In this document: in pieces, positions 31,407-32,241 of the stretch
Layout of the letters: each line of letters begins with the position of its first letter
How positions within the stretch are numbered: position 1 is the first letter of the stretch
Source: Bacteroidetes bacterium ADurb.Bin145
GTDB lineage: Bacteria; Bacteroidota; Bacteroidia; Bacteroidales; VadinHA17
Assembly (NCBI GenBank): GCA_002070505.1
Contig: MWDJ01000014.1
Span: forward strand, 4,371 to 68,370
Direction: 5' to 3'
Length of the DNA stretch: 64,000 bases
Program-made: the position numbers and the translations under genes
Notes under the pieces: generated by a model
Told to the model about the DNA's origin: nothing
Seen by the model: the letters and a program-made list of their open reading frames with translations, nothing else
Databases searched by the model: none

Positions 31407-31584
31407 TGATCCCCGTGGAGGGTTCCCTGCAACTCCAAAGACTCCCAACTCGCTTCACTCGTTGGGTTTTTGTTTTAAGTCAGGCCTTAACAAAACGAAT
31501 TTTGTACGGCCCTCCTTAAAAACAAAAATCCTCCGCCAAACGGCGGAGGAAGTCATTGCGGAGAGAGGGGGATTCGAACCCCCG
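31407..31584. repeat. Right arm of the ~180-bp inverted repeat
   Basis: Reverse complement of 20258-20440. See the left-arm entry. Confidence 0.9.
31518..31551 (-). terminator. Intrinsic terminator after tRNA-Ser(GCU)
   Basis: On the minus strand: cctccgcc-gttt-ggcggagg followed by atttttgttttt. Confidence 0.8.
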
Positions 31585-31645
31585 GTACAGTTACCCATAC
31601 GGCAGTTTAGCAAACTGCTGGTTTAAGCCACTCACCCATCTCTCC
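31559..31645 (-). tRNA. tRNA-Ser (anticodon GCU)
   Basis: Minus strand reads GGAGAGATGGGTGAGTGGCTTAAACCAGCAGTTTGCTAAACTGCCGTATGGGTAACTGTACCGGGGGTTCGAATCCCCCTCTCTCCG. Anticodon stem GCAGT/ACTGC with loop TTGCTAA, a long variable arm, and acceptor and T arms identical to tRNA-Ser(CGA). Confidence 0.9.
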
Positions 31646-32191
31646 CTCTATCCTCCCTGGCTTCAGTAAAGGAGAACTTATATAAATGAACTACGGCAGT
31701 TTAGTCCCGATGCTTCGGGACTGGTTTAAGCCACTCACCCATCTCTCCCTCTATCCTCCCTGGCTTCAGTAAAGGAGAACTTATATAAATGAACTACGGC
31801 AGTTTAGTCCCGATGCTTCGGGACTGGTTTAAGCCACTCACCCATCTCTCCCTCTATCCTCCCTGGCTTCAGTAAAGGAGAACTTATATAAATGAACTAC
31901 GGCAGTTTAGTCCCGATGCTTCGGGACTGGTTTAAGCCACTCACCCATCTCTCCCTCTATCCTCCCTGGCTTCAGTAAAGGAGAACTTATATAAATGAAC
32001 TACGGCAGTTTAGTCCCGATGCTTCGGGACTGGTTTAAGCCACTCACCCATCTCTCCCTCTATCCTCCCTGGCTTCAGTAAAGAAGAACTTATATAAATG
32101 AACTACGGCAGTTTAGTCCCGATCCATCGGGAATGGTTTAAGCCACCCTCGCCCTCCGTAGCTTCAGCGCAGGAGGGTCACCCATCTCTCC
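31646..32191 (-). repeat. Tandem array of four identical 103-bp units plus one 134-bp variant, each with a rearranged 5' fragment of tRNA-Ser(GCU) and a leader hairpin
   Basis: ctcacccatctctcc recurs at 31631, 31734, 31837, 31940 and 32043, an exact 103-nt period. Unit boundaries are 31646/31749/31852/31955/32058/32191. Each unit holds tRNA nt 1-27 and 35-47, but nt 28-34 are replaced by the hairpin TCCCGAAGCATCGGGA, and the T arm and 3' acceptor strand are missing. Confidence 0.9.
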
Positions 32192-32210
32192 ATCACTTTC
32201 CTGAGCGCGA

Positions 32211-32241
32211 CAAAAATAGGAAAACGGATACTAAGTGCAAA
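32211..32241 (-). promoter_or_regulatory. Bacteroidetes-type sigma-A promoter (TTTG-N19-TAnnTTTG) in front of the array
   Basis: Minus strand reads TTTG (32241-32238), 19 nt, then TATTTTTG (32218-32211). The first tRNA-like fragment starts 19 nt downstream of the -7 element. Confidence 0.65.

Follow-up and report, generated by a model that had tools for sequence, protein, structure and literature searches.

tRNA-Ser(GCU)-derived hairpin modules lie between the promoter and the tRNA-Ser(GCU) gene in many Bacteroidota

Why should a tRNA gene be preceded by several incomplete copies of itself? In the window analysed here (a stretch of 64,000 nucleotides from contig MWDJ01000014.1 of Bacteroidetes bacterium ADurb.Bin145), the minus strand carries, in this order, a promoter, a 134-nt unit, four 103-nt units, an intact tRNA-Ser(GCU) gene and a terminator. 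Each unit consists of tRNA positions 1-27, a 16-nt hairpin in place of positions 28-34, positions 35-47 and a leader. In linear numbering, tRNA bases 1-28 and 36-48 match the unit exactly, and CAGTTTG is swapped for TCCCGAAGCATCGGGA. The T arm, the 3' acceptor strand and the 5' anticodon strand are missing. Direct comparison of unit and tRNA confirmed this anatomy, as given in the original prediction, in every detail. The features, followed by the variable arm of a second tRNA-Ser gene, are these:

32211 to 32241, minus strand: Bacteroidota-type promoter, TTTG (32241-32238), N19 and TATTTTTG (32218-32211), read directly from the sequence
32058 to 32191, minus strand: unit 1, 134 nt, promoter-proximal and diverged, with 4 substitutions relative to units 2-5 and a 31-nt insertion
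32147 to 32177, minus strand: insertion hairpin of unit 1, CCCTCC-TGCGCTGAAGCTAC-GGAGGG and then CGAGG, after tRNA position 14 (YCCUCC...GGAGGR motif)
32117 to 32132, minus strand: anticodon-position hairpin of unit 1, TCCCGA-TGGA-TCGGGA (pattern count)
32063 to 32088, minus strand: leader hairpin of unit 1, TTCTTC, with two U.G pairs
31955 to 32057, minus strand: unit 2, 103 nt, identical to units 3-5
32014 to 32029, minus strand: anticodon-position hairpin of unit 2, TCCCGA-AGCA-TCGGGA (pattern count)
31852 to 31954, minus strand: unit 3, 103 nt (direct comparison)
31749 to 31851, minus strand: unit 4, 103 nt (direct comparison)
31646 to 31748, minus strand: unit 5, 103 nt, adjoining the tRNA (87.7 bits with covariance model R1)
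31911 to 31926, 31808 to 31823 and 31705 to 31720, minus strand: identical anticodon-position hairpins of units 3-5
31677 to 31691, minus strand: GTTCATTTATATAAG, boxA-like leader motif of unit 5, repeated at +103 nt in each unit
31651 to 31676, minus strand: leader hairpin of unit 5, TTCTCC-N14-GGAGGA, with one U.G pair
31754 to 31779, 31857 to 31882 and 31960 to 31985, minus strand: further copies of the leader hairpin
31558 to 31645, minus strand: intact tRNA-Ser(GCU) (ARAGORN; Rfam RF00005, 57.8 bits)
31519 to 31550, minus strand: intrinsic terminator-like hairpin and T run, 3' of the tRNA
20241 to 20256, plus strand: variable arm of tRNA-Ser(CGA), the second tRNA-Ser gene, TCCCGC-TTCC-GCGGGA

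Tandem repeat analysis with TRF gave a period of 103, 5.1 copies, 99% matches and a score of 1030, and on direct comparison units 2-5 are a single identical 103-nt sequence. For TCCCGA-N4-TCGGGA the window has 5 occurrences, where 0.06 would be expected. Unit 5 reads tRNA 1-27 plus N27, the hairpin, tRNA 35-47, GTTCATTTATATAAG, the leader hairpin and TAGAG.

Between the promoter motif and unit 1 there are 19 nt. On the minus strand a single terminator-like site (31550-31529) follows the promoter, and it lies after the tRNA; there is none inside the array, and no TAnnTTTG with a correctly spaced TTTG was found within the units. The positions of these signals agree with the earlier claims that the array is promoter-driven and co-transcribed with the tRNA, and that a single obvious terminator follows the latter. 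The full TTTG-N18-22-TAnnTTTG motif stands within 200 nt upstream of the first unit at 52 of the 70 loci that could be assessed, without exception the units share the strand of the tRNA and follow a promoter motif, and we read the same promoter-units-tRNA-terminator architecture directly at several other loci. This orientation points towards an RNA. The tRNA heads a Ser-Pro(-Arg...) operon in many lineages. Some hairpin-bearing copies in Ignavibacteria sit downstream of the tRNA terminator, and these may not be transcribed.

Do the units belong to a known class of RNA? At the array, ARAGORN and Rfam called only the intact tRNA-Ser(GCU) and no tRNA within the units. An Rfam cmscan (E<=10 on 30500-33500, gathering threshold over the whole window) returned two tRNAs only and matched no unit, so that the tRNA-finder and Rfam check proposed with the original prediction turned up no tRNA or Rfam family in any unit. 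A canonical tRNA (RF00005) can be rejected: there is no call even at E<=10, and the T arm and two stem strands are missing. We also rejected a short ORF (AUG at position 7, stop at the UAA of CUAAAC), the frame of which is broken by changes in hairpin length; in many of the tRNAs, moreover, GUG stands at the position of the AUG. Minimum free energy folds of single units and of the whole 681-nt leader are uninformative, since identical palindromes pair across units, and RNAalifold proposed one further helix, UGGC/GCCG, without covariation. Rfam 15 and full-text literature searches yielded no account of such an element, in line with the earlier remark that no described element of this structure was known to its author. 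It looks like an undescribed tRNA-derived RNA element.

How many units are there? Ten other contigs carry a 100% identical RlmD gene and the same locus, and the array differs among them. Unit 1 is the only one in two of them, where it is a chimaera such as repeat collapse could produce; another two hold 2 units, a single contig holds at least 4 together with two runs of N, and the remaining five break off within the array. The array is real and multi-copy, and the count of five is not secure because sister assemblies of the same species disagree. As to the assembly artefact raised at the outset, the sister assemblies include multi-copy arrays, and two assemblies look collapsed. Nor can the perfect identity of four units serve as an argument for maintenance, as originally proposed, when the repeat region is poorly resolved in the sister assemblies. 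Could the tandem array be an assembly artefact altogether? The variable copy number, N gaps, breaks and apparent collapses would fit, but we regard this as extremely improbable: unit 1 and at least one standard unit are present in independent assemblies, at least 4 units are present in L129, and 4-, 6- and 7-unit arrays occur in large contigs of related species (L013, L022, L126), the units of the 7-unit array not being identical. Collapse, furthermore, cannot create the hairpin junctions, since to the right of the hairpin no more than 13 nt of homology is shared. As a practical point, short-read assemblies break at such arrays or collapse them, and the arrays go unnoticed by tRNA annotation pipelines.

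The element is not confined to this genome. Using two independent pattern scans, one with the hairpin fixed and the flanks loose, the other with the tRNA flanks fixed and the insert free, we found the same hairpin-at-28-34 design at about 80 loci, mainly in Bacteroidales and also in Ignavibacteria. These loci hold 1 to 7 units, most of them a single one, and the hairpin occupies the same tRNA position in every locus found. In 10 related lineages sampled blind to the element, intact units were present in 5, decayed units in 1 and no units in 4, where the tRNA locus is otherwise the same; the element is absent from L138, for which RlmD identity is 91%. It is patchy and dispensable in about half of the close relatives. 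Promoter-proximal units have decayed in L011, L043, L046 and L143, and the tRNA-adjacent unit is the best preserved, so not every copy is constrained.

Which part of the unit is conserved? The 62 distinct hairpin variants nearly all fold as a stem of 5-11 bp. The base of the stem (U-A, C-G, C-G) is conserved and the loop is free, as is the total length (13-28 nt), so that the TCC-to-GGA spacing is not fixed. Across 37 loci, 99.5% of cells in the stem alignment are paired, three of the six pairs covary, and the observed score was reached by none of 500 shuffles. By these measures the hairpin behaves like a stem-loop in single-stranded form. Pairwise identity among 25 distinct units from syntenic species is 0.97-0.99 in the stems, compared with 0.36 in the loop and 0.40 in the leader: loop and leader are near saturation while the stem is under constraint. 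As the stem does not derive from the tRNA, its conservation cannot be put down to conversion from that gene. Taken with the recurrence at about 80 loci and the covariation, these values support the earlier inference that the units are maintained rather than decaying, and the comparison with relatives that had been suggested shows a recurring design, a covarying stem and a variable copy number. Sense-strand G.U and A.C pairs in the main hairpin were too few to be compared. A dimeric operator in double-stranded DNA was rejected because of a TCC-to-GGA spacing that varies from 8 to more than 20 nt.

The unit flanks follow the local tRNA, of which we encountered 8 different variants, and 35 of 56 units are identical to it over 13 nt. 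Gene conversion or unequal crossing-over can suffice to explain this identity, with no need for selection for mimicry. Where stem positions are not Watson-Crick paired, the unit copies the 3' strand of the tRNA, an observation that does not discriminate between hypotheses, since any of them predicts such copying. It lends no support to selection of the unit tail for pairing with the 5' anticodon strand of the tRNA, as the mismatched positions copy the 3' strand and complementarity is not restored. No partial tRNA copy with an intact 28-34 segment was seen in the loci scanned.

The original prediction had each unit end in a leader hairpin. This hairpin is indeed present in the units; it is, though, a separate recurring motif rather than a part peculiar to them, related to hairpins at 20065-20189 and found in three copies upstream of the second tRNA-Ser gene. 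Its pairing is kept through U.G pairs that are present on the sense strand only. The YCCUCC...GGAGGR insertion recurs at the same unit position in L005, L006, L019, L040, L089 and L096, where the outer stems (CCCUCC/GGAGGG versus UCCUCC/GGAGGA) and the inner stems both show compensatory changes. GTTC[AT]T, located 10-25 nt after the hairpin, is present in 24 of the 46 unit leaders, where 1.7 would be expected (14-fold), and is absent from the other 22. We take this motif to be boxA-like, by a consensus that comes from other bacteria and may not be that of Bacteroidota. The variable arm of tRNA-Ser(CGA), for its part, has the same 6-bp, 4-nt architecture as the unit hairpin and the same UCC...GGA base; it reads TCCTGC-ATCC-GCGGGA in L126 and TCCTGC-TTTC-GCGGGA in L124. 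Within a genome, the unit hairpin differs from this arm (the window, L126, L124/L139). The likeness to a serine variable arm could be a convergence on a stable GC-rich hairpin.

Is the element associated with particular genes or with mobile DNA? All-against-all BLAST of the flanking ORFs revealed no neighbour protein conserved across divergent loci, nor did these ORFs include a recombinase, transposase or HUH-nuclease. Phage, viral and plasmid collections gave 0 copies (pattern scans of viral contigs and blastn of two units), a covariance-model search of the 64-kb window with filters off found the array only, and the genome scan showed one pattern match per genome. The genes that flank the locus are variable, for instance an OLD-like ATPase in the window and HEPN/MNT in L126. 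A link to the upstream OLD-like ATPase/PP2C pair was rejected, since the array occurs with and without the pair, and close relatives that keep the pair can lack the array. We likewise rejected a CRISPR array (whole units, 'spacers' included, are identical, and PADLOC and Pfam scans of the neighbours detected no Cas), a type III toxin-antitoxin system of the ToxIN kind (tRNA and terminator lie downstream, followed by differing genes, with no ToxN-type match), tRNA-like non-coding RNAs such as YrlA or the tRNA-like domain of tmRNA (no Rfam match, and no T arm or 3' acceptor strand in the common unit) and a REP/RAYT or IS200/IS605-type element (the array stands alone in the 64-kb window, with one match per genome and no transposase nearby).

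Scars of site-specific recombination in the tRNA gene were among the roles first suggested, and the identification of the unit with a mobile-element att site was put forward as one finding that would count against the prediction. The evidence disfavours such scars: there is no integrase, or any element, between units and tRNA, the units abut one another and the tRNA, no neighbour is shared, and the fragments come from the 5' side. A pure identity block, as in an att site, is also difficult to reconcile with a 5' part that bears a 16-nt foreign hairpin at 28-34 in every copy. attL and attR scars do resemble the units in being partial tRNA copies beside an intact gene, tRNA loci being hot spots for islands. 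However, they are usually 3' portions, parted from the gene by an integrated element and its integrase, whereas the units are 5' portions in direct tandem inside the transcription unit, with a conserved foreign hairpin at a fixed internal position, and recur across classes without mobile genes nearby.

What do these observations amount to? It is well supported that many Bacteroidota have, between promoter and tRNA-Ser(GCU) gene or operon, modules of one family derived from tRNA-Ser(GCU); that of the tRNA the module retains the acceptor strand on the 5' side, the sequence of the D arm and the 3' half of the anticodon arm, with a stable hairpin replacing positions 28-34; and that the number of modules rises and falls through unequal recombination among the repeats, the modules being kept close in sequence to the local tRNA. 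As for function, the reading that we tentatively prefer, on the strength of sequence comparison, is that of an accessory, co-transcribed and non-decoding mimic of tRNA-Ser. Transcription would yield the modules as the leading (5') portion of the pre-tRNA, RNase P would free them from the tRNA by its cut at the 5' end of the latter, and cuts in the AU-rich spacers would presumably part them from one another. The freed RNAs would resemble tRNA-Ser(GCU) while being unable to decode, for lack of an anticodon loop, or to be charged, for lack of a T arm and a 3' acceptor strand. Made in a fixed n:1 ratio with the tRNA, they might be in competition with it for some tRNA-Ser-recognising factor, for example seryl-tRNA synthetase, a modification enzyme, or a toxin or nuclease directed at tRNA. 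An accessory decoy would fit the patchy distribution and variable copy number. Accumulation of RNA from the units is an assumption of this scheme, and with T arm, variable arm and 3' acceptor strand missing, only part of the tRNA is mimicked. A more specific version, that the leader-encoded, anticodon-less mimics protect or regulate tRNA-Ser(GCU) by competing through the D-loop and a variable-arm-like surface, is a more doubtful proposition. The enzyme competed for could then be a toxin or nuclease of phages or rival bacteria, a modification enzyme or seryl-tRNA synthetase.

Might the units instead do nothing at all? As non-functional by-products of partial tandem tRNA duplications, rapidly gained and lost, they would be expected to show a patchy distribution, variable copy number and decaying edge copies, all of which we see. 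The palindrome could in this case be kept by quasipalindrome (template-switch) correction, or recopied from the variable arm of another tRNA-Ser. Several further observations fit: recombinant full-length hairpin tRNAs exist (L097, L102, L048), other small palindromes have been inserted into units (L034, L035, L023, L009), the stem equals the Ser(CGA) variable arm in some lineages (TCCCGC/GCGGGA), and self-complementary loops are over-represented (about 11 of the 62 hairpins), an excess that hints at an additional palindrome process at the DNA level. We nevertheless hold this origin to be rather unlikely. Correction would keep pairing and not sequence, yet the stem sequence itself is 97-99% conserved amid saturated neutral positions; the hairpin is unlike the Ser(CGA) arm of the same genome in the cases compared above; the right junction offers no microhomology that would make the same replacement recur; and the plain, hairpin-less tRNA fragments expected from duplication alone are not seen. 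At the observed rate of loss, moreover, a neutral element could not have persisted vertically in both Bacteroidales and Ignavibacteria.

The module could also act in cis, as a nut-like antitermination, processing or folding signal made of the hairpin and a following boxA-like GUUCUU(U)A, in which case the tRNA-like flanks would be a historical leftover of the founding duplication. Its constant placement between promoter and tRNA, the tRNA's position at the head of an operon in many lineages, the enrichment of the boxA-like motif, the single unit of most loci and the better preservation of the tRNA-adjacent unit over the decaying distal ones all speak for a cis role. But a necessary housekeeping signal would not be absent from 4 of 10 close relatives with an otherwise unchanged tRNA locus, nor would the motif be expected to be missing in nearly half of the units. 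A cis signal also leaves unexplained the placement of the hairpin inside a tRNA copy at exactly 28-34 and the sequence conservation of the stem base, and it fits poorly with the Ignavibacteria copies 3' of the terminator; we judge it unlikely. We give far less credence to a DNA-level site, whether a single-stranded recombination or transposition site or a tiny mobile palindrome targeting the sequence before CTAAA, with the hairpin marking non-essential copies of the tRNA gene. In its favour, CCA-N-TCCCGA-N4-TCGGGA-CTAAA occurs 7 times without tRNA context, in intergenic spacers of other taxa, once (L029) inside a heptamer repeat whose register continues on both sides; differing hairpin variants coexist at one locus (L010, L081), and palindromic loops are in excess. 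However, no transposase, integrase or HUH-nuclease gene is associated with it, the hairpin replaces 7 nt and is no insertion, its orientation is strictly tied to the transcription unit, and outside the tRNA locus there is one match per genome and none elsewhere in the 64-kb window. By our own arithmetic (20 fixed bases in 2 x 596 Gb), about 1-2 stand-alone matches are expected by chance, and more if spacers are enriched in hairpins.

How would a tRNA-Ser mimic compare with known systems? B. cereus tRNA-Other (PMC3399842), YrlA and the tRNA-like domain of tmRNA are likewise derived from or mimic tRNA, with the decoding part lost or replaced and a non-translational role. ARAGORN calls the rare full-length form of L097 a tRNA with a 4-nt 'anticodon loop'. 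Those RNAs, however, keep the acceptor/T-arm minihelix and are stand-alone genes, whereas the common unit, which lacks both the T arm and the 3' acceptor strand and matches no Rfam model, comes as a tandem repeat within a pre-tRNA leader.

In E. coli, the 3'ETS-leuZ sponge RNA is one unstructured trailer, and it pairs with sRNAs by way of Hfq. Like it, the units would be by-products of a tRNA precursor, made in fixed ratio to the tRNA and proposed to act in trans once processed; they differ in being a repeated, structured, tRNA-derived module of the 5' leader. RNA antitoxins of the ToxI type share with the units short tandem direct repeats (1-7 in the units), a single promoter and a patchy, accessory distribution. 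As with the ToxI repeats, the tRNA-Ser modules may be cut into units that neutralise a protein. ToxI repeats, however, are 34-45 nt long, form pseudoknots and lie immediately upstream of an endoribonuclease toxin gene, while the units are tRNA-derived repeats with variable neighbours and no adjacent toxin gene. Antitermination leaders of the nut and rrn type, finally, have in common with the units a hairpin and then a U-rich GUUCUUUA-like motif within about 10-25 nt, in the leader of an untranslated operon. Yet the boxB hairpin of nut sites does not sit within a copy of the gene that follows, and tandem amplification is not a feature of such sites, whereas the motif is missing in about half of our units and the element is dispensable in close relatives.

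Even if the units were non-functional, they would be a striking case of concerted evolution and palindrome maintenance beside an essential gene. If they are functional RNAs, they would constitute a new class of tRNA-derived element, a partial mimic carried inside the precursor of the very tRNA that it imitates, amplifiable by repeat expansion and widespread in an ecologically dominant phylum. The UCC...GGA stem base and its flanks could then be used as bait for a factor that binds tRNA-Ser, and bacterial tRNA biology would gain a further layer, whether the modules serve as decoys, regulators or processing guides.

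Direct reading of the window bore out the arrangement claimed in the original prediction, in which a promoter, five units, the intact tRNA-Ser(GCU) and a terminator follow one another:

32241-32211, minus strand: promoter TTTG-N19-TATTTTTG, followed by a 19-nt gap and unit 1
32058-32191, minus strand: unit 1, 134 nt (direct sequence comparison)
31646-32057, minus strand: four identical 103-nt units (direct sequence comparison)
31558-31645, minus strand: intact tRNA-Ser(GCU) (ARAGORN, Rfam)
31550-31519, minus strand: terminator-like hairpin and T run, 3' of tRNA-Ser(GCU)

A standard unit comprises tRNA positions 1-27/28, the hairpin TCCCGA-AGCA-TCGGGA substituting for CAGTTTG of the tRNA, 13 nt (CTAAACTGCCGTA) equivalent to tRNA positions 35-47, GTTCATTTATATAAG, and a leader hairpin, TTCTCC-N14-GGAGGA, ending with TAGAG. 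Unit 1 has four substitutions relative to the later units, and 31 nt are inserted in it 3' of position 14. The hairpin motif occurs five times in the window, against 0.06 expected. ARAGORN and Rfam, run on the window, called no tRNA and no other RNA family in any unit, in keeping with the earlier view that these are not functional tRNAs.

The perfect identity of the four units holds in this assembly, but it is insecure, as sister assemblies disagree on the array. At least 22 public contigs carry a 100% identical copy of the RlmD gene, which lies 3.3 kb upstream, and ten of these contigs were read. In two, unit 1 directly abuts the tRNA and has the same variant of the leader as the later units, which is the mark of repeat collapse; two others have two units (one with a 100-N gap), one reads unit 1, unit, gap, two units, gap, tRNA, and five stop inside the array. 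With at least four units in one independent assembly, the array of this species is real and multi-copy, but neither the count of five nor the 'perfect identity' is secure. Related species have four, six and seven (non-identical) units in the large contigs L013, L022 and L126 (L numbers designate loci fetched for comparison), which from their names and sizes are probably long-read assemblies. That the tandem array is an assembly artefact is hardly credible.

The same design recurs at many loci in two pattern scans. With the hairpin and only eight flanking bases fixed (CCANTCCCGANNNNTCGGGACTAAA), genome contigs yielded 42 loci, where our own arithmetic predicts about one; they come from Bacteroidales, other Bacteroidota and Ignavibacteria, and tRNA-Ser(GCU) adjoins 35 of them. 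With tRNA sequence fixed on both sides and 12 to 30 free bases between (GGTGAGTGGCTNAAACCAN{12,30}CTAAAC), metagenomes gave 81 stretches, about 50 with a unit of this kind and the remainder ordinary tRNAs. The order in nearly all Bacteroidales cases is promoter, one to seven units, tRNA-Ser(GCU), terminator, often with tRNA-Pro and others 3' of tRNA-Ser(GCU), and the units have a fixed orientation within this promoter-to-terminator unit. The Bacteroidetes-type promoter predicted before the array has its counterpart in 52 of 70 assessable loci, where a full TTTG-N18-22-TAnnTTTG lies at most 200 nt 5' of the first unit.

The hairpin always stands in place of positions 28-34, give or take one base. 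Nearly all of the 62 distinct hairpins gathered have a 5-8 bp stem and a 4-nt loop, the stem being lengthened to about 11 bp in L126 and L144. The outer pairs U-A, C-G and C-G are almost invariant, and the inner pairs are compensatory (TCCCGA/TCGGGA, TCCCGT/ACGGGA, TCCCGC/GCGGGA, TCCGCC/GGCGGA, TCCCCAA/TTGGGGA, TCTCGTCAC/GTGACGAGA). In a 37-locus alignment 99.5% of cells are paired and three of six pairs cov­ary, with a covariation score reached by none of 500 shuffles. With a stem of variable length, only folding of a single strand keeps the conserved TCC and GGA next to each other, which argues against a dimeric duplex-DNA operator. Pairwise comparison of 25 distinct units from species with RlmD synteny (about 65-75% protein identity) gave mean identities of 0.97 and 0.99 in the 5' and 3' strands of the stem, 0.98 in the tRNA-derived parts, 0.36 in the loop and 0.40 in the first 15 nt of the leader. 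Homogenisation by the tRNA cannot explain the conservation of the stem, which is not tRNA sequence. The unit thus carries a recurrent, precisely placed stem-loop that covaries and whose base is under strong sequence constraint, and the claim that the array is maintained rather than decaying is supported by the recurrence of the design and by this covarying, conserved stem.

The 25-nt motif CCA-N-TCCCGA-N4-TCGGGA-CTAAA is also found away from any tRNA, shortly after unrelated genes (L001, L014, L017, L018, L029, L036, L037), in Flavobacteriia and in MAGs labelled Patescibacteria, Pirellulales and Fibrobacter. The L029 copy lies within a (CTAAAAT)n heptamer array whose register carries on both sides. 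Such copies could be chance matches, a core that stands alone or a very small mobile palindrome.

The flanks of the units evolve in concert with the local tRNA. They track it through eight anticodon-stem variants; over 13 nt, 35 of 56 units are identical to the local tRNA and only four resemble a foreign variant more closely. Where the unit ends on its 3' side depends on the lineage (position 44, 47, 49 or 55, or the T loop), and Ignavibacteria also have copies running from the D loop to the 3' end, after the terminator. Every form shares the core GGCUNAAACCA-N-hairpin-CUAAACNGNC, and the family loci yielded no partial tRNA copy in which segment 28-34 was intact. Full-length tRNAs with the hairpin are rare recombinants (L097, L102, L048). 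At L097 (2845-2941, plus strand) such a tRNA-Ser, read by ARAGORN as a tRNA with the 4-base anticodon 'tgca', is the sole copy between promoter and terminator; either a second tRNA-Ser(GCU) gene lies elsewhere or this is a recombinant variant within the population.

Fragments of the ordinary kind contrast with the units: in a GC-rich lineage (L077, L095), plain tRNA-Ser positions 1-21 lie about 150 nt upstream of the intact tRNA-Ser and run into unrelated sequence, with no hairpin. A mini-palindrome, GCCTGCC(G)GCAGGC, is inserted in unrelated genomes (L034 at about 475-560, L035, L023, L009 at about 4600-4640) at differing sites, inside pseudo-tRNA units or nearby, which suggests a small mobile or recurrent palindrome.

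The 31-nt insertion of unit 1 is itself a hairpin, whose outer stem is YCCUCC/GGAGGR, whose inner stem is variable and which has a 3x3 internal loop; with compensatory changes, it is found at the same unit position in at least six other genomes. All window units have this motif as their leader hairpin as well, and these leader hairpins stay paired via sense-strand U.G pairs, two of them in unit 1. Three tandem TCCTCC-N-GGAGGA hairpins (20065-20098, 20121-20154 and 20164-20189, plus strand), each preceded by a degenerate tRNA 5' start and bearing this same motif, lie in the leader of the second tRNA-Ser gene, tRNA-Ser(CGA) at 20195-20284; four of the five CCTCC-N12-24-GGAGG matches in the window (0.6 expected) lie at tRNA-Ser leaders. 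The variable arm of tRNA-Ser(CGA), TCCCGC-TTCC-GCGGGA in the window and TCCTGC-NNNN-GCGGGA in relatives, matches the unit hairpin in architecture and in the base of its stem, and L124 has a unit-like fragment with a variable-arm-like hairpin in its Ser(CGA) leader. A further motif, GTTC[AT]T, lies 10-25 nt 3' of the hairpin in 24 of 46 units (1.7 expected). As GTTC[AT]T(T)A it is found at 31677-31691, in each window unit and in the leaders of L002, L013, L025, L065, L085, L087, L103 and others; we take it to resemble the boxA antitermination elements of other bacteria. If boxA-like, the tRNA operon leader may recruit Nus factors.

The two tRNA-Ser genes of the window share inverted repeats 11 kb apart (20258-20440, plus strand, and 31407-31584, minus strand; 92-97% identity), which cover the T arm with the 3' end, the terminator, a long palindrome and a conserved tail (...GGAGTTGCAGGGAACCCTCCA...). 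In L013, L016, L038, L089 and L126 tRNA-Ser genes are likewise followed by a module of this kind, which has no Rfam match. It might act as a conserved 3' trailer RNA, or recombination between its copies might invert the intervening 11 kb. The tRNA-Ser(CGA) module is followed by 67-nt direct repeats, two to three in number and 73-82% identical (20597-20776, plus strand).

To avoid ascertainment bias, eight relatives were selected on RlmD similarity (74-91%) and contig size alone, and checked for units with the covariance model. The RlmD-PP2C-OLD-like synteny is retained in all eight, as is the promoter. Three have intact units (two in L139, one each in L142 and L144), L143 has only a decayed fragment, and no unit was found in L138, L140, L141 and L145; L138 is the closest relative (91% identity), yet lacks units. 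With L126 and the window species added, intact units occur in five of ten lineages, so the element is dispensable and its turnover is rapid, even though it occurs in classes far apart. Its copy number is dynamic and its occurrence patchy. The OLD-like/PP2C pair and the element occur independently of each other, no common family was found among the flanking ORFs of divergent loci, and the element is not tied to any protein gene; nor was it found in the viral, phage and plasmid collections searched.

The neighbouring 761-aa AAA_15 ATPase (32254-35370, minus strand), with an OLD/Toprim-like C-terminal part and PADLOC matches to AriA (3.5e-32) and Old (1.2e-22), forms a pair with a PP2C/SpoIIE phosphatase of 272 aa. 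Both lie beside the tRNA locus in about 20 pattern-found loci and all eight blind-sampled relatives (66-74% identity); their stability equals that of the housekeeping RlmD gene, an unusual trait in a defence-like gene. Beyond the tRNA-Ser(GCU) terminator, the content differs among relatives and the site behaves like an island insertion point, with a HEPN/nucleotidyltransferase pair in L126 (1081-1745), an IS (DDE_Tnp_1) in L139 (12397-13920) and an NHL-repeat gene in the window species and L138. Just 3' of the L003 tRNA-Ser(GCU), a GIY-YIG-like ORF of about 90 aa (1300-1700, minus strand) has been inserted, and the 3' end of the tRNA is duplicated along with the terminator; the ORF has the look of a small mobile cassette that encodes an endonuclease and targets this tRNA.

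We infer that the selected form of the unit is RNA, because of its orientation, the tolerated change in stem length and the sense-strand U.G pairs of the companion hairpin. A hairpin site acting at the DNA level is ranked low, as quite improbable. A non-functional by-product, through DNA-level palindrome maintenance or templating from the variable arm, is unlikely: a neutral scar is hard to square with stem conservation and with a loss rate that is high for something persisting across a phylum. A cis-acting nut-like, processing or folding element seems slightly more doubtful still, a housekeeping signal being hard to square with absence in half of close relatives. As neither the scar nor the housekeeping signal is easily reconciled with these data, we rank the readings in the order mimic, by-product, cis element, DNA site and artefact.

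The element lacks the defining features of a tRNA gene or att-site scar, of CRISPR and type III antitoxin arrays, of YrlA- or tmRNA-type tRNA mimics and of REP-type elements. It has ideas in common with functional tRNA-transcript spacers, with nut sites and with pseudo-tRNAs acting outside translation (PMC3399842). No described family with the unit anatomy was found in Rfam or the literature searched, and this tRNA-derived repeat module, apparently undescribed, is real, widespread and constrained. Its units are tentatively viewed as an accessory, co-transcribed, non-decoding mimic of tRNA-Ser, a decoy or competitor whose partner might, by reasoning only, be SerRS, a tRNA-Ser-directed toxin or a modification enzyme.
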